64,000 nucleotides of DNA from a candidate division Hyd24-12 bacterium UBA5074 (GTDB lineage: Bacteria > Fermentibacterota > Fermentibacteria > Fermentibacterales > Fermentibacteraceae), in the NCBI GenBank assembly GCA_002414865.1, contig DIAQ01000095.1, positions 21,430 through 85,429 of the forward strand, written 5' to 3'. The notes under the pieces were generated by a model. That model was not told where the DNA came from, did no database searches, and saw nothing but the letters and a program-made list of their open reading frames with translations. The position numbers and the translations under genes are program-made. Position 1 is the first letter of the stretch. Every line of letters begins with the position of its first letter. Below, piece by piece: positions 3,010-64,000 of the stretch.

Positions 3010-3137
3010 TTCACCGGCTGTTGCCCCGGCGTGCACTGGACGCCGGGGCAATACCTCGATATAGTGTCAACCAAATGTCCGCCATTGTTGTAACGGGCGG
3101 ACAACGCCTGGAAAATCCAGCATTACATGGAGGGTTT

Positions 3138-4046: not shown

Positions 4047-4077
4047 AGAGCCCCCGCCCCGCGGGGGCTCTTCTCTT
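4047..4077 (+). terminator. Rho-independent terminator.
   Basis: 10-bp stem AGAGCCCCCG (4047-4056) paired with CGGGGGCTCT (4062-4071), a 5-nt loop, then the T-rich tail TCTCTT (4072-4077). It sits directly after the lipoprotein stop at 4022. Confidence 0.55.
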
Positions 4078-21029: not shown

Positions 21030-21072
21030 GTAGGCTATACTCCTGCGGGTCAGGCGCAGCGGGATCCCCCCT

Positions 21073-35340: not shown

Positions 35341-37613
35341 CAGCCTTCCTCCGTCCCGCGGGGCGTTTCGTCCCTCTTCCCGTAGACTTCGCGGCGCTTG
35401 CCGCCCTGGAAGGGCCCTATCACGCCCTCCTCCTGGAGCAGCTCGATCAGCCTGGCGGCCCTCGGGTAGCCCAGCCCGAGCTTCTTCTGGAGGAAGGTCA
35501 CCGAGGCCGTCTTCGAGTTGATGACGAGATCCCTCGCCGTGTCGAGCAGCTCATCCGCTTTTACATCGCCGGCCTGCGGAGTGTTCCCCGGATCCCCCTC
35601 CCGGATGGAGAACCCGTGCTCCGTCTTCAGCGCCTGATCCTTCCAGAATTCGACGATGCTCCTGGCCTCGGAGGTGGACACGTTGGAGCCGTGGATCCTT
35701 ATCGGCTCGGATGAAGTGGCCTGGAGGAACAGCATGTCACCTCTCCCGAGCAGCTTCTCCGCTCCGTTGGCATCGAGGATGGTCCTGGAGTCCGTCTTCG
35801 ACATGACGTTGAAGGCTATCCTGGAAGGGAAGTTGGCCTTTATCACGCCCGTGATGACATCGACGGAGGGCCTCTGGGTGGCGACGACGAGATGGATGCC
35901 AACGGCCCTGGCCTTCTGGGCAAGCCTGCAGATCGGCAGCTCCACCTCGTTGCCGGAGGTCTGCATCAGGTCGTACAGCTCGTCGATGAACAGGACGATG
36001 TACGGCATGGGAACCGCATCGGGCGGCGGGGCGGTGTTGAACTCGTCGATGGTCCTCGCCCTCGCCTTCTCCAGAGTCCTGTAGCGGTTGTCCATCTCTA
36101 CGACGAGGGATTCCAGGAGCTGCCTGGCCTTCTTCGGATCGACGATGACGGGGGCCCAGAGGTGGGGCACGTCCTCGTAGATTGCCAGCTCGACCCTCTT
36201 CGGATCGACCAGGGCCAGCCTCACCTGCTCGGGCTTCCTCGTCATCAGGAGAGTGCAGATCATGCTGTGGATGCTGACGCTCTTGCCCGAGCCGGTGGCC
36301 CCGGCCACGAGCAGGTGCGGAGCCTCGGTGAGGTCGGTCACGAACGGCTCGCCTTCGAGCTTCTTGCCGAGGGCCAGGGGAAGCTTCACGCCCGGTGGCA
36401 CGGCCTGGAGGATCTCACTGAGGAAGACGGGCTCGGGGTTGGAATTGGGCACCTCCACCCCCACCGCATCCCTGCCCGGGATGGGCGCCAGGATGCGTAT
36501 CCTCTTGGCCTTGAGCGCAAGGGCGAGGTCGTCCGAGAGGCCGAGGATGCTGTTCACGCGGACGCCCTGGCCCGGCTTCAGCTCGAACCGGGTCAGCACG
36601 GGGCCGGCCCTGTGTCCGGTCACCCTGCACGAGACGCCGAAGTCGGCGAGCTTCTTCTCCAGAAGGGCTGCCTTCTCGAGCAGCTCGGACTCGGGCACGC
36701 CCCTGGGAGCACCCCTCGAGGGCGCCTCGAGCATGTCGAGCTTCGGCAGGGTCGCCCTGGAGGTGAACGCCTGTACCGCAGGCAGGCCCGCAGACAGAGC
36801 GCCCTCCGGGGACCCGGGGGCACGCACAGGCTCCTCTGCGCGCTCCTTCAGGGGCTCCCTCGCCGGCGCCGCCGACCTGGCTGGAAACCTGTCCGCGGAG
36901 TCCGCCGGGGGCAGAACAGGAGCGCTCCCCGCAATCTCCGGGAGAAGGTCCCTGTCGCTGTCGGCGAGACCCTGGATGATGATGGGCGGGGTATCCTGGC
37001 GCTCAGGCCTGTCCCAGGCATGGCGCTCCATGAAAGGCGGCGGCGCAGGAGGGGCCGGGGTCTCCCCGTCCCTCCCGGGCCTGGCCCTGGGCTTCGGAGC
37101 GGCGCTCTTCGCCGCCCTTCCCAGGAGGAGCAGATCATCCGCCAGGTCCCAGCCTGTGAAGATGACGAGCGCCGTTATGAGGCATGCGAGCAGGATGAGA
37201 TAAGCCACCAGGGATCCGGCGGACTTCTCGAGGAGCTCGACCGTGCTGTGCGCGAGCAGGCCGCCCGGTCTGCCGGCGATGGCGGGGTTGAAGCGGCTGC
37301 CGACCATGTCCGTGAGGGCGGCCAGGAAGTAGCCGGTCACGCCTGTCCCGAGGATGGTCGTGAAGCCTCCCCGGAGCGCTGACGCGCTGAGGGTCCTCAC
37401 GGCGCACATCAGAAGCAGTGCCGGGAGGAGGAAGGACAGGAATCCGGCGCTTCCATAGAGGGCCTGCCTCACCTGGGCCCCCACCCTGCCCCAGGGGGGC
37501 ACGACGAGGAGGACGAGCAGGGAGATCCCTGTGAAGATGCAGGCGACCACGACTATGCTGCGCAGGCTGCTGCGTCGGCGCCTGGCCCTGGACCTGCTCC
37601 GCGCGCGTGCCAT
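35340..37613 (-). CDS. ftsK: DNA translocase FtsK/SpoIIIE.
   Basis: N-terminal TM helices, a Pro/Ala-rich linker, the motor domain [19 protein letters not shown] and a C-terminal gamma (winged-helix) domain. ATG at 37613 overlaps the HU-gene TGA stop (ATGA). Confidence 0.9.
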   Translation of the reverse strand: MARARSRSRARRRRSSLRSIVVVACIFTGISLLVLLVVPPWGRVGAQVRQALYGSAGFLSFLLPALLLMCAVRTLSASALRGGFTTILGTGVTGYFLAALTDMVGSRFNPAIAGRPGGLLAHSTVELLEKSAGSLVAYLILLACLITALVIFTGWDLADDLLLLGRAAKSAAPKPRARPGRDGETPAPPAPPPFMERHAWDRPERQDTPPIIIQGLADSDRDLLPEIAGSAPVLPPADSADRFPARSAAPAREPLKERAEEPVRAPGSPEGALSAGLPAVQAFTSRATLPKLDMLEAPSRGAPRGVPESELLEKAALLEKKLADFGVSCRVTGHRAGPVLTRFELKPGQGVRVNSILGLSDDLALALKAKRIRILAPIPGRDAVGVEVPNSNPEPVFLSEILQAVPPGVKLPLALGKKLEGEPFVTDLTEAPHLLVAGATGSGKSVSIHSMICTLLMTRKPEQVRLALVDPKRVELAIYEDVPHLWAPVIVDPKKARQLLESLVVEMDNRYRTLEKARARTIDEFNTAPPPDAVPMPYIVLFIDELYDLMQTSGNEVELPICRLAQKARAVGIHLVVATQRPSVDVITGVIKANFPSRIAFNVMSKTDSRTILDANGAEKLLGRGDMLFLQATSSEPIRIHGSNVSTSEARSIVEFWKDQALKTEHGFSIREGDPGNTPQAGDVKADELLDTARDLVINSKTASVTFLQKKLGLGYPRAARLIELLQEEGVIGPFQGGKRREVYGKRDETPRGTEEG

Positions 37614-38143
37614 CAGACGGTCCTCACGGAATCCCCGCGGCCGTCGGAGGGGGTCCGCGGATCGCAGAGGAGCGCGCCGTCCACCCAGAACCTGTAGGAC
37701 ACTATGGCTCCGGCCGGGAGGGGCACCTCGGCAACCCAGCTGCCGTCCGGGAGTCGCTGCATGGGATTGGCGGAGGAGTCCCAGCCGTTGAAGCTGCCGA
37801 CGACCGATACTGCCGACGCTCCGGGAGCGCCTGCGTAGACGAACGGCACGCGTGTCATCCGGGACAGGGCCGAGCTCACGGATTCCCTCAGCCTGTCATA
37901 TGGCCTGAAGGAGGGGCGGACCTTCGGGGGGATCTCGATGATGCCGTCGCCCCTGGGATCGCGGGCCCGCCGGGAGCCCGCAGACCGGGCCTCGAAGCAG
38001 CCGAAGCCCCGGAGGTAGACCGATCCTCCCGAGCAGAGGACCTCGGAGATCACCGCGAGGGCGCTCTCCACGACAGCCTGCGCCTCTCTCCTCGTCACTC
38101 CGGTCCTGATGGCGACCTCGCGCGCCAGCTCATCCCTGGTCAG
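37613..38143 (-). CDS. HU/IHF-family DNA-binding domain fused to a C-terminal CBM48/AMPK-beta glycogen-binding-like domain. A CTG start is proposed.
   Basis: ORF track starts at GTG 38098 (VTRREAQAVVESALAVISEVLCSGGSVYLRGFGCFEARSAGSRRARDPRGDGIIEIPPKVRPSF = HU body). In-frame upstream codons encode DLTRDELAREVAIRTG (HU helix 1) preceded by TAG, with CTG at 38143-38141 and GGAGGT 6 nt upstream. C-terminal VPFVYAGAPGASAVSVVGSFNGWD...WVAEVPLPAGAIVSYRFWVDGALLCDP matches the CBM48 pattern. Confidence 0.65.
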   Translation of the reverse strand: MTRDELAREVAIRTGVTRREAQAVVESALAVISEVLCSGGSVYLRGFGCFEARSAGSRRARDPRGDGIIEIPPKVRPSFRPYDRLRESVSSALSRMTRVPFVYAGAPGASAVSVVGSFNGWDSSANPMQRLPDGSWVAEVPLPAGAIVSYRFWVDGALLCDPRTPSDGRGDSVRTV

Positions 38144-45949: not shown

Positions 45950-46534
45950 TCAGCGCAGGCCCAGATTGGGCGGTGAGACGCTCCCCTCCAGGCTGAAGCT
46001 GGCTTCTCCGGCCTCCGCCGTGATCGAGTAGCGTATCGTCCGGATCCTGTCCCTCCCGGCCTCGTCCGCCAGCACGACGCCATCCAGCGCGCGGCCGGAA
46101 TCGTCCAGGTACTCGAAGGAGATCGAAGTCGAGGCAGGCGCCTCGAACAGGACGGTCCCCGCTGCATCCTCCACGGTGATTCCGCCGCCGGGCGGGCTCG
46201 AGATCGAGATCCGGTCCTCCGGCCCGGAGTGACCCGGTTCCTCCGTGTCGTCGAGGAAGGAGACCTGCGAGGGGCCCGCGCAGGCGAATGGATGCCTCCC
46301 GGCTCCCGGGCGCGACGCGGCGTAGCCGGCGCGGCCCAGGGCTGCGGAGATCCTCTCCGCGGCCAGGCCCGCCTCGGCCGAGGCCCTCCCCGCGTCAGCA
46401 GCCCTCCGGGCCGCCTCCCTGCCGTTGAGATAGACGGCATAGAGGGCGCCCAGCAGGACGACGAGGACTGCGATCACCACGACAAGCTCGACGAGTGTGA
46501 ACCCCTGCCGGCGCGGCGGGATGCCGTCCGGCAT
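45950..46534 (-). CDS. Type IV pilin-like protein (pseudopilin); last gene of the operon.
   Basis: Class III signal MPDGIPPRRQG|FTLVELVVVIAVLVVLLGALYAV, with Phe at +1 and Glu at +5. Confidence 0.8.
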   Translation of the reverse strand: MPDGIPPRRQGFTLVELVVVIAVLVVLLGALYAVYLNGREAARRAADAGRASAEAGLAAERISAALGRAGYAASRPGAGRHPFACAGPSQVSFLDDTEEPGHSGPEDRISISSPPGGGITVEDAAGTVLFEAPASTSISFEYLDDSGRALDGVVLADEAGRDRIRTIRYSITAEAGEASFSLEGSVSPPNLGLR

Positions 46535-46553
46535 GCACCGGGGTGCGCGGGCG

Positions 46554-47978
46554 CTAGAAGATGTTGTCGTCTATCCTGCCGTCCCCGAAGTCGGGATCGA
46601 GCTGCCAGGAGATCATCTTCCAGGCTTCCAGGGTGGGGAATCCGGGAGGGTGGACGGAGGCGTATCCCTCGTCCCAGGCTATGGTCAGCTCGTAGCCGGA
46701 GAATCCCGTCTCGAGCGAGCCGAACCTCTCTTCCAGGAGCCCTCCGAGGACATTCAGGGAGAACCTCCCCCCTCCGGCCGAGGGATCTTCGGCCTCGAGG
46801 GAGCCGGACGGACAGGCGAGGTAGGCGCCTATCGAGAGGTGCCTGTCGGTCGTGATGTCCCAGGGGCGGGGCCAGTCGGGCGCGCCGGAAGCGTCCGGGT
46901 CGGCAGCCACGATGATGTCGCCGAGCGACACCAGCGCGAGCGGCGAGCCGGAGTAGGCGGATTGCGAGCTGATGGGCCCCATGACGACCAGGGGGCCGCC
47001 GACCACGATGGTCAGGGGCTGATCGACCGCGCCGAGCGACTTCATGTAGACGGGGGCGAACCCGCTCTGGATGTACACGATGCTCCTGCCGCCCAGCCCC
47101 AGCGTGTCCACCTGCATCCCGGGACCGGCGGAGTAGAGGAGGCGGCGCCCGTCCAGGAGGACCCTCCTGGCCCCCCGTATCAGCGACCCCTGCCGTGAGG
47201 CCTCCGCGGAGAGGGTCTCGAAGCAGGCGGTCAGCCTGGAGAAGCTTACGCTGTCGGCGGCTCCGTCCCAGTACGGCCTCCCCTGGAGCATCTGCGGATA
47301 GGGGCGGACCCAGGTTCTGCTGCCGGGGGGGTGGGGCAGGTCGCTCCTCCCGAAGTCATCGAAGAGGAAGCCGCCGCGGGCGGTTGTCGAGACCGATGCC
47401 ACCCACGGGTCGTCTGCGGAGTCCGGCGACTCGCTGGAGAAGCTGACAGGGCCGTTGGAGTGCACCGGGCCGGCCATGATGCAGCCGTCGTCCAGGAAGC
47501 CCGCAGGCACGCCTGCGTCGACCAGCAGCGAGTACCTGGAAGGATAGTCCGGCAACGCCCTCACCGAGACATCCCTCATGAGCCCGTTCGAGAGCCCCCT
47601 CGCCCTGATCTCCACCGAGCCGATCCGGCAAGGGAGGTAGTTCTGGTCCGAGGGATCGATCAGGACCCAGACGCTCTCTCCGGACGGGAGGGATATCCAC
47701 TGGGCGCTGTCTCCCGGGAGGGCGAAGGGCTCCCTGCCCCCCGGGACCGAGTCGGCCAGCGACAATGTGTGGAGGGCGAGGCTCACTCCGGCCTCGGCTG
47801 CGAACTGCGCCCTGGTCCTGTCGAGCTTGAATGCGAAGCTGGCCACGTTGCTCTGGAAGATCACGTAGACGGCGCCCGCCAGGATGAAGAGCACGAGCCC
47901 GAAGATCGCGGCCAGGGCGAGCACGGCGCCTGTCGCGCCGCGCCGCCCTGCCTCAAGGGGTCTAGAACCAGTGCTCAT
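46554..47978 (-). CDS. PilX/GspK-like large minor pilin (paralog 1).
   Basis: N-terminal RRG|ATGAVLALAAIFGLVLFILAGAVY, then QFAAEAGVSLAL (PilX_N-like). 474 aa. C-terminus DPDFGDGRIDDNIF is similar to the paralog. Confidence 0.7.
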   Translation of the reverse strand: MSTGSRPLEAGRRGATGAVLALAAIFGLVLFILAGAVYVIFQSNVASFAFKLDRTRAQFAAEAGVSLALHTLSLADSVPGGREPFALPGDSAQWISLPSGESVWVLIDPSDQNYLPCRIGSVEIRARGLSNGLMRDVSVRALPDYPSRYSLLVDAGVPAGFLDDGCIMAGPVHSNGPVSFSSESPDSADDPWVASVSTTARGGFLFDDFGRSDLPHPPGSRTWVRPYPQMLQGRPYWDGAADSVSFSRLTACFETLSAEASRQGSLIRGARRVLLDGRRLLYSAGPGMQVDTLGLGGRSIVYIQSGFAPVYMKSLGAVDQPLTIVVGGPLVVMGPISSQSAYSGSPLALVSLGDIIVAADPDASGAPDWPRPWDITTDRHLSIGAYLACPSGSLEAEDPSAGGGRFSLNVLGGLLEERFGSLETGFSGYELTIAWDEGYASVHPPGFPTLEAWKMISWQLDPDFGDGRIDDNIF

Positions 47979-49470
47979 CCACCGAGTCGAGGTCGAGGTC
48001 GGGCTTCTCCGCCCAGTACACCACGTCCCACCGGCCCGTCTGCGGGAAGAACGGCGGGTGCATGGAGAGCAGCCTGGGGTCGTAGTAGATCACGGTGTCG
48101 TAACCGGAGCTCGGGGTGGTGGTGTACCCCTCCGTGTTCACGATGTAACCGCCCATGACCATGAAGTCCACGGGGCCGGGCGGGACGTTCCAGTTCTCGG
48201 CGTTGAACGCGCCGTTGAGGTCCATCACCACCATGTCGTACTCGATGTCCGCATTCGTGACGATGCGCCAGACCGGGTCGGTCCAGTCGGTTCCCCCCAC
48301 GCTCTCCGGATCCACCGCGATGGTGAAGTTCCCGTAGACGATGATTATCCCCAGCATGGTGAAGTTGCCGGCGTCCTGCAGGTCGCGGTTCTGGTACTGC
48401 AGGGTGCCCGACACGAAGAGGCTCCCGTTGACTCCTATCGTCAGCGGCATGCTGAGTCCGTCCTGGCACCAGGGCGCGGTGCCGGTGACGTACGGCGGCA
48501 TGCTCTTCAGATAGACCCTCTGGGCGGCGCCGTTGTCGATCCAGACCACGGGATTTACCAGGTCGCCCAGATAGAAGCGCTGGACCGCGGCCGCGTTGCT
48601 CTCCTTCACGAGCAGCGTGTCGTTCCTCAGTATCATCCTGGTGCGGTCGTCGAGAGTGCCAGGACCGAAGTAGAGCCCTCCGGAGATGGCCGCGTTGCGG
48701 GCATCCCCCCAGTCGACCTCGCCGGGGCCGTATGCGATCGGGTCCACGTTCAGCTCGAAGTAGGGCGCACCCATGGACATCCTCTCCGGGGGCTGGATGG
48801 AGAGGTTGCCGTAGACCGGAGAGGTGCGGTACGGGGGAGCGGTGCCTCCGAAGCCGGTGCTGTACCAGTAGCCCGGTGACGCCAGGCTGAAGCGGTAGAA
48901 CCAGATGTCATTGGTGGTCGAAGCGTCGCTGCTGAAGAGGCAGACTCCTCCGTTCGCGAAGAAGGGTCCGTCGAACCTGTAGCCGTCGCCGTAGTAGCCG
49001 TTGGTGGGCGGCACGTTGAGGAAGGTGGCGAACCTGGCGAAGTTCTCGGGGACGACCACCGTCTCCATTCCGTAGTCGAAGGTTCCCTGCTGGGACTCCA
49101 CCCTTCCGAGGGCCCTCAGGCCGTAGGCGTCGCCCGCCCAGACCTCCGGGTTGTTGTTGCTGGGATCGACCCAGACCGTCACTTCGCCCAGGTCGTCCCC
49201 GGGCAGGTCCTCCCACCCTGTCGCGGGAGGCTCGGGCAGGAACTGCACCGGGAGCGTGTCGTAGGGTACCGAGGCGCCGCCCATGATCATGTCCACGGCC
49301 AGGTTGGCCCCGGCCTCGGCCGTGTACCTGGCCTGTATCCTGTCACGGTCCCAGGTGTAGCTCTTCATGTTGGCGTCGAACAGGGTGTACACGGCGGCCG
49401 CGAGGATGGAGAGGACGAGGGTGGCTATCACCACCATCGCGAGAGCCGCTCCTCTTCTGTCTGGCTTCAT
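47962..49470 (-). CDS. PilX/GspK-like large minor pilin (paralog 2).
   Basis: ATG at 49470 with GGAGGGGGA Shine-Dalgarno. N-terminal RRG|AALAMVVIATLVLSILAAAVY plus RYTAEAGANLAV. 502 aa. Confidence 0.7.
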   Translation of the reverse strand: MKPDRRGAALAMVVIATLVLSILAAAVYTLFDANMKSYTWDRDRIQARYTAEAGANLAVDMIMGGASVPYDTLPVQFLPEPPATGWEDLPGDDLGEVTVWVDPSNNNPEVWAGDAYGLRALGRVESQQGTFDYGMETVVVPENFARFATFLNVPPTNGYYGDGYRFDGPFFANGGVCLFSSDASTTNDIWFYRFSLASPGYWYSTGFGGTAPPYRTSPVYGNLSIQPPERMSMGAPYFELNVDPIAYGPGEVDWGDARNAAISGGLYFGPGTLDDRTRMILRNDTLLVKESNAAAVQRFYLGDLVNPVVWIDNGAAQRVYLKSMPPYVTGTAPWCQDGLSMPLTIGVNGSLFVSGTLQYQNRDLQDAGNFTMLGIIIVYGNFTIAVDPESVGGTDWTDPVWRIVTNADIEYDMVVMDLNGAFNAENWNVPPGPVDFMVMGGYIVNTEGYTTTPSSGYDTVIYYDPRLLSMHPPFFPQTGRWDVVYWAEKPDLDLDSVDEHWF

Positions 49471-49482
49471 CTTCTCCCCCTC

Positions 49483-52400
49483 CTAGTTGGGCACGGCGAA
49501 GAACTGGATGTTGTCGAGGTTCCAGCCGCCGCGCTCCATGAACGGGCCTGAGTACTGCAGGAACCTGATGAAGTAATAGGAGTAGCCTGCTCCCCAGGCC
49601 GCCGTGAACTCCGGCGTGAGATCGATCCACTCGTCATCCCAGTCGAGCTGGTTCTCGCCGCTGTACTGCCTCACCAGCTTCCAGGCGCTCGATACGGAAT
49701 CGGGGGGGGTGGTCGAGTTCGAGAACCCTATCGAGATGTAGGCGTCGTCGGTGGCCGAGAGCCTGACGCAGCGGTAGTACTCCACCGATACACTGTCGTA
49801 GAGGCTCTGGCTTGGCATCGTGTAGGCGGGCGAGACCAGCCATGCCCACTGGTTGGAGGGGTAGTACCCATCGACAGTCAGGTCGGTGCCCGCGACCGTC
49901 AGGCCGTTCTCGGGAGTGAGAGCCGGATCGACGCTGAGGACCAGAGGCGCCGCTATCTCCCAGTCGTCATCTCTGCCCCCGTGGGTCCACCAGCCGCCGG
50001 ACCCCGACGTGCCCAGCTCTGAGGCCAGATAGATCACCTCGAAGTCGTTGTAGAGATTGTAGTTGTTGAGAGGCACCGAGTCGTCGGGGGTGGTCCCGCT
50101 TATCTCGCCGAGGGCCCCTGTCGTGGACTGCACCCTGATGGCCGGCCTCCTGGCGTGGAGGGCCAGCACGGTCGGATCGGCGGTATCGCTGCCGGCCTGG
50201 CGGCACCTGACTGCGGAAGGCGCATCCTCGGTCATCCACGAGGTGTTGGCCGAAGTCCAGCCGGCGTCGTGCTGCTCCACCTTGATGCAGAGGTTCATCC
50301 CCGGCGGCAGCAGGAAGGTGTCGTCGAGGTTGAGGGTCTTCCAGCCCGTGGAGTTTACACCCAGGGTGCCCTCGTCCACGACCTGGGTCATCGTCGCCTT
50401 GTCGATCTCGCCGGCGCCCGCAAAGGTCGAGTCGGCGATCGCAGCCATGTAGACGTCATAGGTGAAGTTCCAGGGCGAAGGCACCGATGCCGCCTCGAAG
50501 TCGAGCGCGCTGATCTCGTAGCCGGTGGCCTGGCCGAACACGCGGAAGTTGTCGATGTGCCAGCCCACGTCCGCGGTGGTGGTGTTCGAGCCGAACACGA
50601 AGCGGAACCTGACGGTGTGCCCGGCGTACGAGTCGAGGTTCACGGTGTCCGTCCGCCAGGTCTGCAACCCGCAGAAGATGCGCATGCCCGCTCCGCCCGG
50701 GAAGCCCGCGAGGGAGTTGGCGCTGTAGACCAGGCCGGAGGCGTCGGTCAGCGTGACCCAGCCCCCTCCATCCACCGAGAGCTGGACGAATCCGCCGTCG
50801 TACTGGTTCTGCGTGTCCACATAGTGCGTGAACTGCATCTTGGGCGAGACCACCCAGGCGGGGATGGAGACGGTCGGCGTGGTCAGATAGCAGTAGGTGT
50901 TGTTCGCGTACTGCGTGCCGGAGGCCTGCTGCACCGTCCACGAGTATCCGTAGAGGGCGTCCACCTCCTTGGTGTTCCAGGTGTCGAGGTGCCCGGCGCT
51001 CATCGGCCCGTGGGACCAGCCCGAGAGGCCGAGGCCCGGCGTGAGCCTGCTTATCCTGAGGTCGTCCCACTGCATGCCGCCCGATGGGATCGGATTCCCG
51101 CCGAACTGGCTCAGGGACACGCGGTAGTTGGAGCCGAACGGGTAGGACGAGGCGAAGGCCGCATCATCGAGGTCGACGAAGACGGTCTCCCATCCGGCCG
51201 GGCCTGCGCCGGCGCCTATTCGCGTGTAGGTCGTGTCGGCCGTGACTACGATGTTGTCCAAGGAGATGCCGTCGTTGTTGTCCAGCGAGACGGCGGTGTT
51301 GTTGTTGTTCGAGCCGAACAGCACGTAGAGGTTCGCGGGCATGGTGACCGGGGTGAACCGGTAGCTGCGGTTGAACCAGCTGCTGTTGTTGTAGGAGGAA
51401 GGCGTGAGGTTCACGGGATCGGTCGGCGCGGCGGCGATGCCCACGCTGCTCCAGCCCACGAAGTCGCCCGTCGCTCCCGTGTTGTCGCCGTCGTTGTGGT
51501 CGTGGAACCTGTAGCTGACGGTCAGGGGCGTGTTGTTGGGAAGCCCGCCCGTGCTGAAGTAGACGGCCATCCGGTTGGCGACCCCCGCGCCGTTGGAGAC
51601 CCTGTCCAGGGTGATGAAATTGCCGTCGCCGAGCCATCCCGCGGGCGAATGCACTCTCCACTGGCCGTTGACAGGGATCTGCGTGGTGATGCCCGGAGGC
51701 AGGACCCCGGCCGTGGGGAACCCGGTGTGGAACAGAGTGTCGATGTCGGTGAAGAAAACGCCGTCCATCGCGTCCGGGGCTCCCTCGTAGCTGCGGCACT
51801 TCACGGAGAGGAGCAGCTCGTCGGTCATGTAGCTGAAGGGGCTCAGGTCGACCGTGACGGTGGCGATGTTCCTCGTGCCCGTCCCCGCCGTCGGGCGGTG
51901 CATCTGCAGGACGTCATCGGTCGTGTTGATGCCGCAGGACCCCATACCCAGGGCCGCGAAGGACCAGCTCAGGAGCGGGGCGTCGGTGAACGGCTCCCAG
52001 AACAGCACGGTGGTGTCAGTCACCGCCGTCGGGTTCACGTTCTCCTCCCACAGGTTGATCTCCTGCGAGCTGACCCCGGGGCCCTCGAAGTCCTCGAGCG
52101 TAGTCAGCTCGTCCCCGTGGTCGCCGGCCGTGGTGCCGCAGCTCCAGGCGATCGCATTGTAGAACAGGGGCCAGCCGCCCGACTCCGTGTACTCGCTTGC
52201 GTCGTAGGGGCTGAAGTGGATCCTGCGGAGCGCCTCGTCGTCCTCGTCGCGCACGATGATGGCGCAGTTGGCCACCGCCGTGCCTCCGATGCCGAGGTAC
52301 TCGGGGTTGGAGAGGGCGGGATCGGTGCCAAGGAGCATCGACTGCCTGCCGCTGGAGATCGGCGAATATGCGTAGATGGTGTCCGGCGTGATGTTCTTGA

Positions 52401-53367
52401 AGACGGGGTGGTCTATCGCATAGGCAGTCACGACAGGCTCCTGCGAGTCGTGCTCGCCGGTGCCCATCCCGAAGCACTCGTATGCGTCCTGCGCATCCAG
52501 CGTGACGATCGGGACTCCGGCGCCCTCCAGGAACGAGGCCATGCCGGAGTGGGAGCCGCTGTCCATGTGCCTGAGGACGATCACCATCACGTCGGTGTAG
52601 TCGTACGTGATCAGCTGGTCGTCGGTGAGCACGGTCACGGTGTAGCCCCAGAGCTGGAGCCTGTTGATCATCAGCTGCTGGTCTTCCGTGGGCTCGGGGA
52701 TCGCGCCGATGCCATCGACGTTGAAGACGATGATCCCGTCGAGGGGCGCGGGCGGGAAGAAGGCGGGATTGATGTTGTGGTTCACGCCCAGGTTCCGGGG
52801 CGAGACCGTGGTGTGGAGCACTGTCTGGTAGACGTCGCCCGCATAGGTGGCCGTGAGCTCGATGGTGATCTGGACGTGCCTGATGAGGTCGCGCCCGGCT
52901 TCGTCCAGCGGCATCACGAGCTCGTCGCCGTCCTCGTCGAAATAGAGGAAGCTCAGGTCGGTGACGTTCTCGCCGAACTGCTGAGTCTTCCCGGCGTTGT
53001 CCGTCACCGTTATCCGGTTGTTGAGCAGCATCACGTGGCGGTAGTCGGCATCGTCCAGAGTCCGGAAGGGCCGGAAGTCGGCGTAGAAGCCCAGGGAGTC
53101 GTTGTCGGCCTGCGTGACAGGGTGCCAGTCGTCGTTGTCCCAGCCGCCGTATGGCATGTAGCCGACCCAGATCACCTCGTTCGTGAGCCTGTCCAGGGCG
53201 AGCCTCCCCGCCACGTCCAGCTCGTTCTGGCGGCGGGCGAAGTTGAAGTGCTCGGTCCCCGACACGAACATCATGAACACCGCGGCCATGATCACGCCGA
53301 GAATGACGACGACGATCGTCACCTCGACGAGGCTCATGCCGCGCCTGCCCGAATCGCTGCTTCGCAT
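49483..53367 (-). CDS. Giant type IV prepilin-like protein (about 1295 aa) with a very large extracellular region containing lectin/jelly-roll-like segments.
   Basis: ATG at 53367 gives leader MRSSDSGRRG | MSLVEVTIVVVILGVIMAAVFMMF (Met at +1, Glu at +5). The rest is rich in W/Y/N/T/D, with motifs such as GWHIDNFRVF and WNLDNIQFF. The antisense 1080-aa ORF is rejected. Confidence 0.8.
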   Translation of the reverse strand: MRSSDSGRRGMSLVEVTIVVVILGVIMAAVFMMFVSGTEHFNFARRQNELDVAGRLALDRLTNEVIWVGYMPYGGWDNDDWHPVTQADNDSLGFYADFRPFRTLDDADYRHVMLLNNRITVTDNAGKTQQFGENVTDLSFLYFDEDGDELVMPLDEAGRDLIRHVQITIELTATYAGDVYQTVLHTTVSPRNLGVNHNINPAFFPPAPLDGIIVFNVDGIGAIPEPTEDQQLMINRLQLWGYTVTVLTDDQLITYDYTDVMVIVLRHMDSGSHSGMASFLEGAGVPIVTLDAQDAYECFGMGTGEHDSQEPVVTAYAIDHPVFKNITPDTIYAYSPISSGRQSMLLGTDPALSNPEYLGIGGTAVANCAIIVRDEDDEALRRIHFSPYDASEYTESGGWPLFYNAIAWSCGTTAGDHGDELTTLEDFEGPGVSSQEINLWEENVNPTAVTDTTVLFWEPFTDAPLLSWSFAALGMGSCGINTTDDVLQMHRPTAGTGTRNIATVTVDLSPFSYMTDELLLSVKCRSYEGAPDAMDGVFFTDIDTLFHTGFPTAGVLPPGITTQIPVNGQWRVHSPAGWLGDGNFITLDRVSNGAGVANRMAVYFSTGGLPNNTPLTVSYRFHDHNDGDNTGATGDFVGWSSVGIAAAPTDPVNLTPSSYNNSSWFNRSYRFTPVTMPANLYVLFGSNNNNTAVSLDNNDGISLDNIVVTADTTYTRIGAGAGPAGWETVFVDLDDAAFASSYPFGSNYRVSLSQFGGNPIPSGGMQWDDLRISRLTPGLGLSGWSHGPMSAGHLDTWNTKEVDALYGYSWTVQQASGTQYANNTYCYLTTPTVSIPAWVVSPKMQFTHYVDTQNQYDGGFVQLSVDGGGWVTLTDASGLVYSANSLAGFPGGAGMRIFCGLQTWRTDTVNLDSYAGHTVRFRFVFGSNTTTADVGWHIDNFRVFGQATGYEISALDFEAASVPSPWNFTYDVYMAAIADSTFAGAGEIDKATMTQVVDEGTLGVNSTGWKTLNLDDTFLLPPGMNLCIKVEQHDAGWTSANTSWMTEDAPSAVRCRQAGSDTADPTVLALHARRPAIRVQSTTGALGEISGTTPDDSVPLNNYNLYNDFEVIYLASELGTSGSGGWWTHGGRDDDWEIAAPLVLSVDPALTPENGLTVAGTDLTVDGYYPSNQWAWLVSPAYTMPSQSLYDSVSVEYYRCVRLSATDDAYISIGFSNSTTPPDSVSSAWKLVRQYSGENQLDWDDEWIDLTPEFTAAWGAGYSYYFIRFLQYSGPFMERGGWNLDNIQFFAVPN

Positions 53368-53380
53368 GTCCACCACCCGC

Positions 53381-53758
53381 CTAGAGAATCGTGCTGAGCG
53401 TCAGGGTGTCCGGACCCTGGGCGCCATCCCAGACAACCATGCTCTGCACGAGCCGGGCCTCGGACAGAGTCGAATACGGAGTGCTGATAAGCATGTACCT
53501 GGAGAACTTCTCGAATGTGACCGGGCCCGTGGTGCCGTCGGGCATGGTGGAGATGTCGAGGGTCCTGATCTCCTCGAGGCCCTGCCGGCTCAGCTCGAGC
53601 GCCCTGGTGCGATCGTCCATCACATCGGACTGCTTGATGATGTACCCGAAGAAGAAGCCTATCCCGATGATCAGGATCGCCAGCAGCACGCTTGCCAGAA
53701 GGACCTCCACGAGGGTGAACCCGCCGTTCCTGGTGCGCCTTCCCCCCACTGCGATCAC
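53381..53758 (-). CDS. Small pseudopilin (GspI/PilV-like).
   Basis: Leader RTRNGG|FTLVEVLLASVLLAILIIGIGFF (Phe at +1, Glu at +5). 125 aa. GTG start at 53758. Confidence 0.75.
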   Translation of the reverse strand: MIAVGGRRTRNGGFTLVEVLLASVLLAILIIGIGFFFGYIIKQSDVMDDRTRALELSRQGLEEIRTLDISTMPDGTTGPVTFEKFSRYMLISTPYSTLSEARLVQSMVVWDGAQGPDTLTLSTIL

Positions 53759-53768
53759 ATCCCTTCTC

Positions 53769-54119
53769 CTATTGGTAGAACTTGCGCTCGAGATCCACGA
53801 GTCCCCCCGGGGGAGACGATACCGACACTTCGAGAACGATCACCCCGCCGGGCTCCTCGCGCGCCTCGGTGCGCACGGAGTAGCTTCCTCCCGCCGCGCG
53901 GACCACGGTGTTCCTGGCGCCGAAGGGCCGGGGAGGCGGGCCTGCACCCCAGGAGGCCATCTCGTCGGAAGCCAGCGCGAGCGCTGTGCGCCGCGAGGCA
54001 ACGAGCCTCTGGCCTCTCAGGAACGTGCCCGTCGCCAGGCACAGGGCCGCAAGGACGACGAGGGTGATGCCCGAGGCCATGAAGGTCTCCGCGAGCGAAT
54101 AGCCGCGCCTGGGAATCAT
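53769..54119 (-). CDS. Small pseudopilin (GspH/FimT-like).
   Basis: ATG at 54119 overlaps the upstream TGA stop (ATGA). Leader MIPRRG|YSLAETFMASGITLVVLAALCLATG, with Glu at +5. Confidence 0.75.
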   Translation of the reverse strand: MIPRRGYSLAETFMASGITLVVLAALCLATGTFLRGQRLVASRRTALALASDEMASWGAGPPPRPFGARNTVVRAAGGSYSVRTEAREEPGGVIVLEVSVSSPPGGLVDLERKFYQ

Positions 54120-55706: not shown

Positions 55707-56780
55707 TTAGGCGCCCGGCTTCAGCCTGAACATCCTCCCGGGGAGCTGCTCGACCACTCCCGCCATCTCGAGCTCGAGGAGCCGCGCGAGCAGCTCGGGG
55801 GCAGGGCGCGACAGCCCCCTCACGAGCTCGTCGAGATGGACTGGGCCTTCGCAGAGGGAGGTGGCGATCTCCTTCAGGATGCCCTCCAGCCGGGCGGCGG
55901 GCGCCTCCCGGGACGAACTCCTCCTCTGCAGTCCGATCGCGTCGAGCACGTCCGAGGCCGATGTGACGACGCCCGCACCCTCCTTCAGGAGGCGGTTCGT
56001 GCCCCGCGAGCCCCCTCTCAGTATCTCGCCCGGCACCGCGAGGACGTCCCTGCCCTGCGCAAGGGCTGCGTCGACCGTGATCATCGTCCCGCTCCTGTCG
56101 CCGGCCTCGACCACGACCACCGCGCTGGAGAAGCCGCTGATGAGCCTGTTCCTCCTGGGGAAGTTCCAGGCGTCGGGCTCCGTGCCCGGGGGGAACTCGC
56201 TGACGAGGCAGCCGCGAGCCTGGATTTCCGCGGCCAGCCGCACATGCTCCCGGGGGTAGATGATGTCTATGCCAGAGCCCAGCACCGCGAGAGTGGATCC
56301 CCCCGCCTCGAGGCAGCCTCTGTGGGCTTCTGCATCGATGCCCCTCGCGAGTCCGCTCACGACGCCCACCCCTTCGGCGGCGAGCTCCCTCGACAGCATC
56401 CGGGCCACTCCGAGCCCGTAGGGGGATGCCCTGCGGCTTCCGATGACCGCCACGGCCGGCCGCTCGAGGAAGCCGGTCATGTCTCCCAGCCAGAACAGGG
56501 CTGCGGGCGGATCGGGGATGTCGCGGAGGACCGCCGGGTAGCCCGGCGAGGACAACCAGGTGCCGCCAGCTCCGGATGACTGCAGGTAATCGATCGCATA
56601 TCCGAGTTTTTCGGGATCGGGCGCTCCCGATGGATGCGAGACCCTGAGCCTCTCCACCGCTTCAGGGGGATCGCAGGCCAGCAGGAGGGATCTCAGGAAG
56701 GCGGCGCCGGCTCCGCTCCAGCTGCAGGCTTCGACGAGGCTTCCGAGGCCGCCGTGCGCGCCTGCTTCACTCTTTCCCAC
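55707..56780 (-). CDS. dprA: DNA-processing protein DprA (Smf).
   Basis: Rossmann-like core RPAVAVIGSRRASPYG...VVSGLARGIDAEAHRG...RNRLISGFSSAVVVVEAGDRSGTMITVDAAL. The start is uncertain: the ORF begins with GTG at 56780 and overlaps obg by 88 nt, and an alternative GTG exists at 56657. Confidence 0.8.
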   Translation of the reverse strand: MGKSEAGAHGGLGSLVEACSWSGAGAAFLRSLLLACDPPEAVERLRVSHPSGAPDPEKLGYAIDYLQSSGAGGTWLSSPGYPAVLRDIPDPPAALFWLGDMTGFLERPAVAVIGSRRASPYGLGVARMLSRELAAEGVGVVSGLARGIDAEAHRGCLEAGGSTLAVLGSGIDIIYPREHVRLAAEIQARGCLVSEFPPGTEPDAWNFPRRNRLISGFSSAVVVVEAGDRSGTMITVDAALAQGRDVLAVPGEILRGGSRGTNRLLKEGAGVVTSASDVLDAIGLQRRSSSREAPAARLEGILKEIATSLCEGPVHLDELVRGLSRPAPELLARLLELEMAGVVEQLPGRMFRLKPGA

Positions 56781-57715
56781 AGAACGGACAGTAATCGATC
56801 CACCCCCTCGCCGGTTGCCGCGCTCAGCGAGACCGCGCCTCCGGGGAGGGACGACAGCATGCCGTCCACCTCGCCGGGCGGGATCGTGTCGGACTTCGAC
56901 AGTACGATCATCCCCTCGGCCTCCGCCAGGGTCGGCGAGTACTTCGCGAGCTCCATCCTGAGTGTGACGAGCTGCTCGGACGGGGAGGCTTCGAGGTCCG
57001 GAGCCAGGAGGAATACGAGCAGAGAGGTCCGCTCCACATGGCGGAGGAACCTCAGGCCGAGGCCCGCTCCCTCTGATGCCCCCTCGATGAGACCTGGCAG
57101 ATCGGCGACCACGAAGCTGCTGCCCAGTCCCATGCGCACGACGCCCAGGCAGGGGTGCAGGGTGGTGAACGGGAAGTTGCCGATCTTGGGGCGCGCGGCG
57201 CTGATCACCGAGAGGAGGGTGGACTTGCCCGCGTTGGGGAATCCCACGAGGCCTATATCAGCCATAATCTTGAGGTCCATGGCGATACGTCGCTGTTCAC
57301 CCGGCCTGCCCGGTGTGGAGAACCTGGGGGCCTGTCTGCGCGAGGTCGCGAACCTGGCATTCCCGTGGCCGGCGGATCCTCCTCTTGCGACGATCATCGT
57401 CTGACCTTCGTCCGTCATGTCCGCCAGCACCTCGCCCGTCCCGAGGTCGGAGATGATCGTGCCGGGCGGGATCGAGAGCACGAGGTCCCTTCCGCTCCGA
57501 CCGGTCTTCTTCGAGCCCGAGCCCGGCTTTCCGTTCTCGGCCCTGAACGAGGTTCCGGAGATGAAATCGGTAAGAGTGACGAGCTTCACGTCGACCAGGA
57601 GGATCACGTCCCCCCCGCGGCCTCCGTCTCCACCGCTCGGTCCGCCACGGGGGACGAAGGCCTCCCTGCGGAAGGCCACGGCCCCGTCTCCGCCGCGCCC
57701 TCCGGCAACGTCCAC
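56693..57715 (-). CDS. obg: GTPase Obg/CgtA.
   Basis: Glycine-rich Obg fold GGRGGDGAVAFRRE...GGPSGGDGGRGG. G-domain GLVGFPNAGKSTLL, DLPGLIEGA, SKSD. GTG start at 57715. The conserved Obg N-terminal strand RFVDRVVV is encoded in-frame immediately upstream with no canonical start (see findings). Confidence 0.85.
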   Translation of the reverse strand: MDVAGGRGGDGAVAFRREAFVPRGGPSGGDGGRGGDVILLVDVKLVTLTDFISGTSFRAENGKPGSGSKKTGRSGRDLVLSIPPGTIISDLGTGEVLADMTDEGQTMIVARGGSAGHGNARFATSRRQAPRFSTPGRPGEQRRIAMDLKIMADIGLVGFPNAGKSTLLSVISAARPKIGNFPFTTLHPCLGVVRMGLGSSFVVADLPGLIEGASEGAGLGLRFLRHVERTSLLVFLLAPDLEASPSEQLVTLRMELAKYSPTLAEAEGMIVLSKSDTIPPGEVDGMLSSLPGGAVSLSAATGEGVDRLLSVLWERVKQARTAASEASSKPAAGAEPAPPS

Positions 57716-57760
57716 GACAACCCTGTCAACGAATCTCGATTCCGTCGCACACCCCCGGGG

Positions 57761-57796
57761 AAAACGGGCCCGCCTCAGACTTGCTGGGGCGGGCCC
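57761..57796 (-). terminator. Putative rho-independent terminator on the minus strand, between the TPR lipoprotein gene and obg.
   Basis: 9-bp GC stem GGGCCCGCC (57766-57774) paired with GGCGGGCCC (57788-57796), a 13-nt loop, followed on the minus strand by GUUUUCC (57765-57759). Confidence 0.4.
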
Positions 57797-57817
57797 TGGG
57801 CAATCCTGTCCGGACCT

Positions 57818-59428
57818 CTATTCGCTGTAGCGGCGTACTCTGTCGATCTTCTCCTCGCAGAGCGCGATGGCGTTGGTGGCGGCGGTCACCATCTCCTGGG
57901 CCTGGCCCGAGCGGTAGCCCGAGACCTGGCTCAGGTAGCTGACGGCGGACTGGAGGTTCTGGATGGCTTCCTCCCAGATGGGGATGTTGGCCACGACCAG
58001 CTCTGAAACCTGCGCCCCCCTGGAACCCGCCTGGTAGTAGAAGGCGCCGACCATGTAGTTGGCAACCGGATCGTTGGGATAGGCGCTTCGGAGCCTGGAG
58101 AAGACCTGCTGCATCGTCCCGTACTGCCCGCTGTCGCGGTAGACGGTTGCGAGAAGCATGTAGGCCTGCCTGTCCCCCGTGGAGGAGATGACGGACTCGA
58201 GACGGTTCACGGCGTCCGTGGTGCGACCGGCACGGGCCTCGAGCTGGGCCGTGTAGATGGCCAGCTGAGTGTTGTCCGGCTGCTCGGCCAGGACGATTAT
58301 CGCGTTGTCGGCGGCATCGGCATGGCGGCCCACCTCGGAATATGCGGACACCAGCTTGAGCCTCAGATTGGTGAACGACGGGTTGCTCGCGAGGACGGAT
58401 TCGATGTTCGGGATCGCCGCCTCGTTGTCGCCGAGCTGCATGTAGAGAAGCCCCAGGGCATACCTCGCCTGGAGGTTCTGGGGGTTCTGGGCGACTGCGC
58501 TCTCGAAGCTGGCGACGGCCTCGTCGACCATGCCCATCGAGGTGTATGCGGTCGCCAGTCCGACATATGCCGATGCGTTGTCGGGATTCGCGGCGATGGC
58601 CCTGTCGAAGTAGTCCTTGGCCTCGGGGGCGTTGTCCCGGGCCAGAAGAACCTGGCCTATGCCGGCGAGAGCATCGGAATTGTTTGCATCGGAGGCGAGG
58701 ATCTCCTCGTATATGACTTGCGCCCTGTCCAGGGAGTCGATGTCGGAGCGCATGTAGATACCCGCCAGATCGAGCCTGGCCTGGACGAGGCCGGGGTCGA
58801 CCTGGAGCGCCTGCTTCAGTGAGGCGATGGCCATGGGCCAGTTCTCGACGCTCATGTGGTACTCGGCCATGCTGAGCGCGTTCTGAGCCCTCTGGCCCAC
58901 CTGCTCCTGGATCGACCGGACCATCGCATCGGCGAGGGCCGAGACCTGGGCGTTGTCCCTGATCACGGTGGAGGGTTGGGGCGTGACCGTGCTGCCCGAG
59001 GCCACGACGCCGATGTTCCAGCTGACCTGATAGGGACCCTCGCCCGATGGCGAGACGAAACCGTACACGACAAGGTCGGCCTGGACCGCTCCGGCCGCGG
59101 AGCACGCTATGTCCGGCGGCACTCCGTACTGGAAGTCGGACGGGTTGAATCCGAGATCGGAGAAGGCGTCCTCGAGGTCCCCACGGTCGACGAAGGCGTA
59201 GTCGGCCGATTCGTTGAGTTCTGATTCGATTGCGTCATAAAGCTTTCCGCTGATCCATCTCGAATCGGAATCGCCGTATCCGAAAGGCACGACGGCCACG
59301 TTGACCGGGCCATCCGTGCCGCCGGGAGAAGCGACCGCCTGGCCGCAGGCCAGGGCCGACAGACAGAAGCCGAACAGGCCCAACCTGGTCAAGATATCCT
59401 CCTTGATGAACCGGTAAACTTCATTCAT
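57818..59428 (-). CDS. TPR-repeat lipoprotein.
   Basis: ATG at 59428. Signal/lipobox LGLFGFCLSALACGQ. At least 8 TPR-like repeats (AIASLKQALQVDPGLVQARLDLAGIYM...). Confidence 0.75.
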   Translation of the reverse strand: MNEVYRFIKEDILTRLGLFGFCLSALACGQAVASPGGTDGPVNVAVVPFGYGDSDSRWISGKLYDAIESELNESADYAFVDRGDLEDAFSDLGFNPSDFQYGVPPDIACSAAGAVQADLVVYGFVSPSGEGPYQVSWNIGVVASGSTVTPQPSTVIRDNAQVSALADAMVRSIQEQVGQRAQNALSMAEYHMSVENWPMAIASLKQALQVDPGLVQARLDLAGIYMRSDIDSLDRAQVIYEEILASDANNSDALAGIGQVLLARDNAPEAKDYFDRAIAANPDNASAYVGLATAYTSMGMVDEAVASFESAVAQNPQNLQARYALGLLYMQLGDNEAAIPNIESVLASNPSFTNLRLKLVSAYSEVGRHADAADNAIIVLAEQPDNTQLAIYTAQLEARAGRTTDAVNRLESVISSTGDRQAYMLLATVYRDSGQYGTMQQVFSRLRSAYPNDPVANYMVGAFYYQAGSRGAQVSELVVANIPIWEEAIQNLQSAVSYLSQVSGYRSGQAQEMVTAATNAIALCEEKIDRVRRYSE

Positions 59429-63642: not shown

Positions 63643-64000
63643 GGCGCAGGGTCGGACTGTAAGCCGGGTTCTGTATCGCCTCGCGGCGACGGCGGCCATT
63701 CGTCTGGGATCCCGGTCGCCCGGGACCTCTAGCGGCCTACCCGGAGGTGGTTGGGGGAGCGGGCAGCTCCCCGTCCGGCCGGAGCCGGACTCCCTCCCTA
63801 TTGGGCCTTGCACCGGGCGAGGTTTGCCGTGCGGATCCGGTTGCCCGGATCCCGGTGGGCTCTTGCCCCACCTTTTCACCCTTGCCCGCACTGGGCGGGC
63901 GGTTTCTTTTCTGTGGCACTTTCCTGCCGTTGCCGGCACCGGGTGTTGCCCGGCGCCCTGCCCTGCGGTGCCCGGACTTTCCTCCCGCCTGCGGCGGGCG
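63643..64000 (-). ncRNA. rnpB: RNase P RNA (bacterial type A), 5' end truncated by the window edge.
   Basis: The minus strand carries GGGAGGAAAGTCCGGGC (P4 5' strand) at 63975-63991, GGGTGAAAAGGTGGGGCAAGAGCCCACC, GGCAAACCTCGCCCGGTGCAAGGCCCAATAGGGAGGG, and 3' ACAGAACCCGGCTTACAG. The 3' end lies about 12 nt from the recJ start. Confidence 0.85.

Follow-up and report, generated by a model that had tools for sequence, protein, structure and literature searches.

We analyzed a 64,000-nucleotide stretch of DNA from the candidate division Hyd24-12 bacterium UBA5074, a member of the Fermentibacteria (GenBank assembly GCA_002414865.1, contig DIAQ01000095.1, positions 21,430 to 85,429 of the forward strand); this stretch is referred to here as the window, and all coordinates are positions in it. 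The gene for the GTPase Obg (obg) and the tetratricopeptide repeat (TPR) lipoprotein gene upstream of it lie on the minus strand. Comparison with related lineages leads us to favor, with some confidence, translation of obg from an ACG codon at 57745, at a conserved site led by a Shine-Dalgarno (SD) sequence and behind a conserved hairpin that resembles a leaky terminator. The proposed full coding sequence (56693 to 57745, minus strand) has 350 codons followed by the stop codon TGA (56695 to 56693).

The conserved N terminus of Obg is encoded upstream of the first canonical start codon

Read along the minus strand, the region runs from the TAG stop codon of the TPR lipoprotein gene (57820 to 57818, in the same frame as obg) through a GC-rich hairpin, a short U-tract (GUUUU, 57765 to 57761), CCCC, GGGGG, and UGUGCG to the ACG (57745 to 57743), followed by nine codons specifying ESRFVDRVV (57742 to 57716) and then GTG 57715 (57715 to 57713), the first in-frame ATG, GTG, or TTG of obg. 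The obg frame is open from the TAG, and the 24 codons between the TAG and the ACG include no ATG, GTG, or TTG. The nine codons after the ACG read GAA TCG AGA TTC GTT GAC AGG GTT GTC. Neither they nor the ten codons preceding them include ATG, GTG, TTG, CTG, or ATN, which bears out the observation of the first-pass annotation, a reading of the letters alone, that the ESRFVDRVV stretch before GTG 57715 lacks a start codon. A CTG at 57778 to 57776, within the hairpin loop, is the only start codon of NCBI translation table 11 between the TAG and GTG 57715. The public JGI gene call begins further downstream, at a GTG at 57679 to 57677, and yields a 328-amino-acid product (P0001) beginning VAFRRE.

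The protein started at the ACG scores 394.6 bits against the NCBIfam equivalog TIGR02729 (cutoff, 280.25) and 396.8 bits against PRK12299 (cutoff, 300), and its G domain motifs GFPNAGKST and ADLPGLIEGA (P-loop GxPNAGKS and DxPG) align to the structures 1UDX and 1LNZ. With the ten extra residues, the NCBIfam Obg models match from profile position 1 or 2 (TIGR02729 from position 1, at the Phe). For the protein started at GTG 57715, Obg profiles match only from position 8 to 10 (position 8 for TIGR02729), with scores about 9 to 10 bits lower. Both structures match the obg product from their residue 2, with an E value of about 1e-92; their Phe2 pairs with the window Phe encoded at 57733 to 57731, and the upstream-encoded Phe and Asp correspond to structure residues 2 and 4. 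These residues, F5 and D7 of the ACG-start protein, are invariant in a 28-sequence Obg alignment, and the first strand of the PF01018 Obg fold, with its conserved F-x-D, is complete only with the ACG start. Profiles, structures, and alignment agree with the earlier assignment of the nine upstream codons to the Obg N terminus. An AlphaFold2 model of full-length Obg (mean predicted local distance difference test score, 77.9; residues 1 to 5 of low confidence) places the first strand at residues 8 to 14. GTG 57715 corresponds to residue 11, so that the predicted strand straddles it and would be cut by a start there.

The nearest homologs of the window protein are Obg proteins of Candidatus Fermentibacteria, at 60 to 67% identity, with none closer in the protein collection searched. 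Their public N termini are ragged (MESRFVD..., MVLESRFVD..., MGAPLESRFVD..., VSLDSRFID...), and truncated calls begin VDRV, MVID, MDRVE, MASGKG, or MPKGG. The N terminus is missing from the public call for the window obg and from those for 4 of 14 Fermentibacteria-like homologs; three others start canonically upstream of the CTG that, as described below, many of these lineages carry at the position of the ACG.

Conservation across Fermentibacteria begins at the position of the ACG

We compared the window with DNA of nine related Fermentibacteria lineages, giving ten lineages in all; the closest relative with DNA is about 66% identical. The gene order helicase, YfiH-like, TPR, obg, and dprA is common to all ten. 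The codon directly before (E/D)(S/Q)RF(V/I)D is ATG in one relative (L023), TTG in two (L021 and L026, the latter with an in-frame TGA two codons upstream), CTG in six (L017, L019, L024, L025, L027, and L028), and ACG in the window. Three of the CTG lineages (L019, L027, and L028) have no ATG, GTG, or TTG from the upstream in-frame stop to an internal GTG or ATG within the conserved coding region. The remaining three (L017, L024, and L025) do have a canonical codon nearby, but it is adjacent to or upstream of the SD, whose spacing from the CTG is 4 to 6 nucleotides (nt). The SDs of the nine relatives are G-rich (GGAGG, GGGAGG, or GGGGGG), have predicted energies of -6.5 to -10.9 kcal/mol, and lie 3 to 8 nt before the homologous codon.

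Amino acid conservation begins exactly at the ACG-equivalent codon and is of the coding type. In comparison with the nine relatives, identity is 16 of 81 residues (20%) over the nine codons preceding the ACG, 70 of 81 (86%; 36 synonymous and 11 nonsynonymous codon differences) over the nine following it, and 217 of 270 (80%; 113 synonymous and 53 nonsynonymous differences) over the next thirty. Against L017, the ESRFVDRVV codons show five synonymous differences and no nonsynonymous ones. The serine codon in this stretch is TCG in the window and AGC in L017 and L019, which points clearly to selection acting at the amino acid level. Alignment of orthologs, which the first-pass annotation had proposed as a check, thus finds the upstream similarity in the relatives and locates the onset of conservation at the ACG-equivalent codon and not at GTG 57715.

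A scan of genome contigs with the window Obg protein returned distant phyla only and no Fermentibacteria. A metagenome scan with the degenerate pattern FRREAFVP(R/K)GGP gave at least one Fermentibacteria locus among the matches listed; these were mostly one repeated obg N-terminal type, largely on human-gut metagenome contigs. Separately, a metagenome contig of 73% GC (L135) carries an unrelated obg with the N terminus ...RARRSFVDVAHIE and no ATG, GTG, or TTG near the conserved F-V-D. The codons before its Phe are GCC CGC AGG TCG, and it may represent another extended or noncanonical start.

A Shine-Dalgarno sequence precedes the ACG

The SD-like GGGGG lies at 57756 to 57752 (extended form CGGGGGUG, 57757 to 57750), 4 to 6 nt upstream of the ACG, with the last G of the run 6 nt from it. 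SD energies were calculated as the predicted duplex with ACCUCCUUU, the assumed 3' end of the organism's 16S rRNA; the genes for 16S rRNA and initiator tRNA, and infC, all lie outside the window. The predicted duplex energy is -9.9 kcal/mol for ACG 57745, -3.3 kcal/mol for GTG 57715, and -6.6 kcal/mol for GTG 57679, against a window background in which the median is -3.3 kcal/mol and 3.3% of positions reach -9.9 kcal/mol. The ACG thus combines a single mismatch to AUG, at the second position, with a functionally spaced SD and a start position common to its orthologs. The unusual initiation mechanism that had been listed among the explanations in the first-pass annotation, where the ACG and its SD went unnoticed, gains support from these findings and takes a specific form, that of an ACG at the SD-led position conserved in the clade. 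We also considered translational coupling through sequestration of the SD by sequence just after the TPR stop codon; no consistent pairing partner was found there, and the mean pairing probability of the SD was 0.38 to 0.78, so that the analysis lends this idea no support.

The sequence around the ACG is the same in independent assemblies. Four other JGI contigs, which come from four samples, match the 171 nt around the start (57670 to 57840) at 100% identity. Compared end to end, two of these contigs show no difference from the window and two show a single differing base. The source samples are wetland sediments (JGI 3300000030, 3300000077, 3300003938, and 3300004078). An assembly error, another of the earlier suggestions, is excluded because the four other assemblies are identical at the locus; with the window, five assemblies drawn from different samples carry one and the same sequence at the obg start.

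Proposed initiation at the ACG and competing readings

We propose that initiator tRNA reads ACG 57745, one base off AUG, with the GGGGG 6 nt upstream positioning the ribosome. The product would be full-length Obg beginning (f)Met-Glu-Ser-Arg-Phe-Val-Asp, the initial residue presumably being Met. In E. coli, ACG initiates with an N-terminal Met, plus some Thr, at about 0.1 to 1% of the AUG level, compared with 1 to 2% for CUG (Hecht et al., bioRxiv 10.1101/063800). Fermentibacteria would share a single conserved obg start site. A weak start codon would be the ancestral or usual state for obg in the clade, because most lineages carry CTG there, and ACG would be a variant of the window lineage, most simply reached by the path CTG to ATG to ACG.

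Several points weigh against this proposal. ACG is a very poor start codon in E. coli, both at the 0.1 to 1% level given above and in the T7 0.3 gene, in which replacing AUG with ACG severely curtailed protein synthesis (cited in PMC5499595). So weak a codon is hard to reconcile with an essential ribosome-associated GTPase, unless start-codon discrimination is looser in this lineage or little Obg is needed. ACG is outside the table 11 start set, and the literature searched contained no account of natural ACG starts in bacteria or of start-codon usage in Fermentibacteria. An SD-like G-run of -9.9 kcal/mol arises by chance at about 3% of positions, and the hairpin misses the U-tract criterion of the terminator scan described below. 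Finally, with the nearest DNA at about 66% identity, a very recent loss of the start, rescued at GTG 57715, would leave the same pattern of conservation.

That last scenario is the competitor that survives best, although we consider it unlikely. Here translation would begin at GTG 57715 and give Obg without its first ten residues, the original start having recently mutated to ACG and the upstream similarity being a remnant that has not yet decayed. GTG 57715 is the first in-frame ATG, GTG, or TTG and has a weak AGGG 5 nt upstream; ACG initiates very poorly in E. coli; and no relative above about 66% identity is at hand to date the change. However, the SD energy of GTG 57715 equals the background median (-3.3 kcal/mol), the AGG before it is a conserved Arg codon found in all relatives, and GTG at nearby Val positions is common in relatives that clearly start upstream. 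A start there would also lose the invariant Phe and Asp and half of strand 1, while the SD ahead of ACG 57745 has been retained and the nine upstream codons show no nonsynonymous differences to L017 against five synonymous ones. The recent N-terminal truncation raised in the first-pass annotation is thus disfavored by both the conservation pattern and the SD energies.

Use of several starts seems to us quite improbable. Low-level initiation at the ACG would then supply full-length Obg, and GTG 57715 or GTG 57679 would supply N-terminally shortened forms. Each of the three codons has some SD-like sequence (-9.9, -3.3, and -6.6 kcal/mol), and an inefficient near-cognate start would leave downstream sites free of occlusion by heavy initiation; yet nothing points to stability of a shortened Obg fold, and in this family the internal GTGs encode ordinary Val residues. 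A start at CTG 57778, which would add 11 unconserved residues (LRRARFPRGCA) before TESRFVD, is very unlikely. No other table 11 start codon follows the upstream stop before GTG 57715 is reached, but this CTG is part of the loop enclosed by the 9-bp GC stem, lacks an SD (-3.1 kcal/mol), and is without a counterpart in the relatives, in which conservation sets in at the ACG-equivalent codon.

In plant organelles, start codons arise through C-to-U editing of ACG, and a single such change would suffice to turn this ACG into AUG. Editing of this kind, or a sequencing or assembly artifact at the ACG, is nevertheless the least credible of these readings, as the five assemblies agree at the ACG, the CTG of the relatives is not convertible to AUG by editing, and we know of no bacterial mRNA C-to-U editing system, although no search for one was made. 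Reinitiation after an upstream open reading frame (out-of-frame GTG 57752 to TGA 57726, ending 10 nt before GTG 57715) was rejected, as its GTG abuts the SD and its TGA is absent from the relatives.

A conserved hairpin lies between the TPR gene and obg

The hairpin (57796 to 57766, minus strand) begins 21 nt after the TAG and has a perfect 9-bp stem, GGGCCCGCC paired with GGCGGGCCC (57796 to 57788 and 57774 to 57766), around a 13-nt loop. The stem lies 20 nt from the ACG, a distance taken up mostly by the U-tract and the SD, which confirms the earlier observation of a hairpin just upstream of obg that leaves no room for a promoter. In all ten lineages, a GC-rich hairpin of 9 to 16 bp lies within the 61- to 80-nt spacer that leads from the TPR stop to the start of obg; the sequences differ between lineages, while position and structure are conserved. 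In the relatives the 3' tails are only moderately U-rich, and in the window the tail GUUUUCCC has 4 U, below the terminator criterion of at least 5 U in 8. Scans of 56500 to 58200 called no terminator and no sigma-70 promoter, and the spacer has no Rfam match, even at E values up to 1.

With no room for an obg promoter between the stem and the ACG, transcription of obg would have to cross the hairpin, whether by read-through or by starting within the TPR gene. The hairpin has the look of a terminator with a weak U-tract that serves the upstream TPR lipoprotein gene. It also looks like the organism's usual terminator type: of only eight perfect GC hairpins with 9 bp or more in the window, three lie 12 to 25 nt after a stop codon (3021 to 3051, 4047 to 4071, and the one at obg). 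Because the hairpin occurs in all relatives and leaves no promoter room, read-through is the likely route, and obg is probably transcribed in this way, with a promoter inside the TPR gene as the alternative; either route would leave the hairpin in the obg leader. Of the readthrough or attenuation control suggested in the first-pass annotation, read-through thus appears likely. Partial termination at the hairpin, together with a weak start codon, would keep Obg output far lower than that of the upstream lipoprotein, and low expression may itself be the purpose of the arrangement.

The hairpins at 3021 to 3051 and 4047 to 4071 are on the plus strand, have 12 and 11 bp, and lie 12 and 25 nt after the respective stops. 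They follow consecutive same-strand lipoprotein-like genes, have U-poor tails, and are of the same type as the obg-proximal hairpin. At the other end of the TPR gene, a TTG start (59390 to 59392, minus strand) is conserved in the ten lineages; a strong SD, AAGGAGGA (-11.2 kcal/mol), precedes it, and translation from it gives the lipobox signal peptide MTRLGLFGFCLSALAC. The open reading frame list and the JGI call instead use an ATG 12 codons further upstream (59428 to 59426), which is probably not where translation begins.

Other genes in the window with probable near-cognate starts

Two further genes in the window probably start at CTG. The first, at 37613 to 38143 on the minus strand, encodes a 176-amino-acid fusion of an HU-family DNA-binding domain and a CBM48/AMPK1_CBM-like domain of the glycogen-binding type, with a probable start at CTG 38143 to 38141. 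A TAG followed by five codons lies upstream of this CTG, which has a GGAGG SD (predicted energy, -10.6 kcal/mol); no canonical start precedes helix 1, and relatives begin MTR(D/E)ELA at this position. Six further assemblies are identical at the start, and the public call for the species (P0121) is truncated to 161 amino acids. The second gene, at 19665 to 21059 on the minus strand, encodes an M23 family peptidase with a probable start at CTG 21059 to 21057 and its first ATG at 21029 to 21027. The TGA of its upstream gene (21075 to 21073) is followed by the SD AGGGGGGA, 5 nt, and the CTG. The N termini of its relatives have an RLxRR n-region and the start of a membrane helix, both of which in the window are encoded upstream of ATG 21029, and RLxRR is missing from the public call that starts at that ATG (P0180). 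As a side observation, the fusion of HU with a carbohydrate-binding domain appears to be clade-wide in Fermentibacteria.

Near-cognate starts are rare in well-studied bacteria, and roughly 3 in about 50 genes here is well above that; near-cognate starts appear enriched in the window, far from general. An SD-energy survey of about 50 likely window genes found that most begin with ATG behind an SD of -9 to -11 kcal/mol. Six conserved genes were checked against profile beginnings, and the canonical starts of dapA, rimO (TTG), aroE, recJ, a hydE-like gene, and bamD all fit. We therefore rejected genome-wide relaxed initiation as a rule. The first-pass annotation had taken the obg and HU genes as a hint of frequent noncanonical initiation in this genome; the CTG starts of the HU and M23 genes are probable and make use of near-cognate codons in this organism more plausible, because both genes have strong SDs, but the six canonical conserved genes and the prevalence of ATG with a good SD speak against such starts being common.

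A broader interpretation, which we regard as doubtful, is that initiation in this lineage is relaxed, with CTG and even ACG serving as regular starts for several percent of genes, essential ones among them, and that the clade-wide weak obg start (CTG or ACG in seven of ten lineages) is a selected regulatory device. Such a start could, for example, make Obg synthesis depend on IF3 activity or on the state of ribosome assembly; in E. coli, immature 30S subunits relax start-codon proofreading (PMC6868393). As to the initiation machinery itself, no tRNA genes were found in the window, and a tblastn search for infC gave no match there.

Neighboring features

Start-region alignments of dprA and the yfiH-like gene across the loci were uninformative. 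The start of dprA itself (55707 to 56780, minus strand) is ambiguous across the loci L017 to L028, with public calls ranging from 238 to 316 amino acids across lineages. The apparently conserved SD-like GGCGAGGGGGUGGA upstream of dprA is the obg GEGV motif in another frame. A seemingly conserved ATT/ACG column in the dprA frame likewise reflects this GEGV motif, read out of frame.

Downstream of dprA, a run of genes at about 45950 to 53839 (minus strand), one of them 1305 codons long, encodes products that open with prepilin-type N-methylation motifs (GFTLVE, MSLVEV) and is likely a pseudopilin or type IV pilus-like cluster. A class A bacterial RNase P RNA (RF00010, 228 bits) lies at 63644 to 64000 on the minus strand, with its 5' end cut by the window edge.

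Implications and relation to known systems

If the proposed ACG start is correct, a natural bacterial start codon outside table 11 serves an essential, universally conserved gene, and obg retains a weak start codon throughout a candidate phylum. Prodigal-type callers, which accept only ATG, GTG, and TTG, would then mis-start the obg, HU, and M23 genes and produce truncated public calls like those described above. The obg locus would also offer a defined, testable case for variation in start-codon fidelity between bacterial phyla.

The window protein shares the Obg fold and G domain with the canonical Obg/CgtA proteins (B. subtilis 1LNZ, T. thermophilus 1UDX, and E. coli ObgE), with which it aligns from their residue 2. 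Fermentibacteria Obg differs from them by a 3-residue extension (M-E-S-R-F versus M-F) and the absence of a C-terminal OCT domain. The obg starts sampled in other phyla are ATG, GTG, or TTG.

Intercistronic attenuators, that is, intrinsic terminators with weak U-tracts, have the same arrangement as the obg leader: a GC stem-loop, here 21 nt after the stop, a short U run, and a downstream gene with no room for a promoter. The obg hairpin differs in having only 4 U, below the scan threshold, and could instead be an RNA-stability or processing hairpin.

Near-cognate initiation itself is known, and comparison among lineages suggests that the ACG start on obg is a variant of it. Sussman et al. reportedly grouped CUG, AUU, AUC, AUA, and ACG as "class IIA" codons in 1996. 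The E. coli gene for IF3, infC, starts at AUU. Like near-cognate starts of the infC type, the obg codon has a single mismatch, follows a properly spaced SD at a position conserved in its clade, would be read inefficiently by initiator tRNA, and belongs to a gene tied to the translation apparatus. They differ in that infC has shown autoregulation by IF3, whereas the obg codon is an ACG, outside table 11, in a clade that mostly has CTG. ACG initiation in E. coli experiments concerns engineered reporters or mutants working at 0.1 to 1% of AUG; the obg ACG, which likewise follows an SD, is natural, fixed in the sampled population, and on an essential gene. Plant organelle genes likewise have a genomic ACG at a conserved AUG position. 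At the obg position, the CTG or TTG of the relatives points to near-cognate decoding rather than editing.

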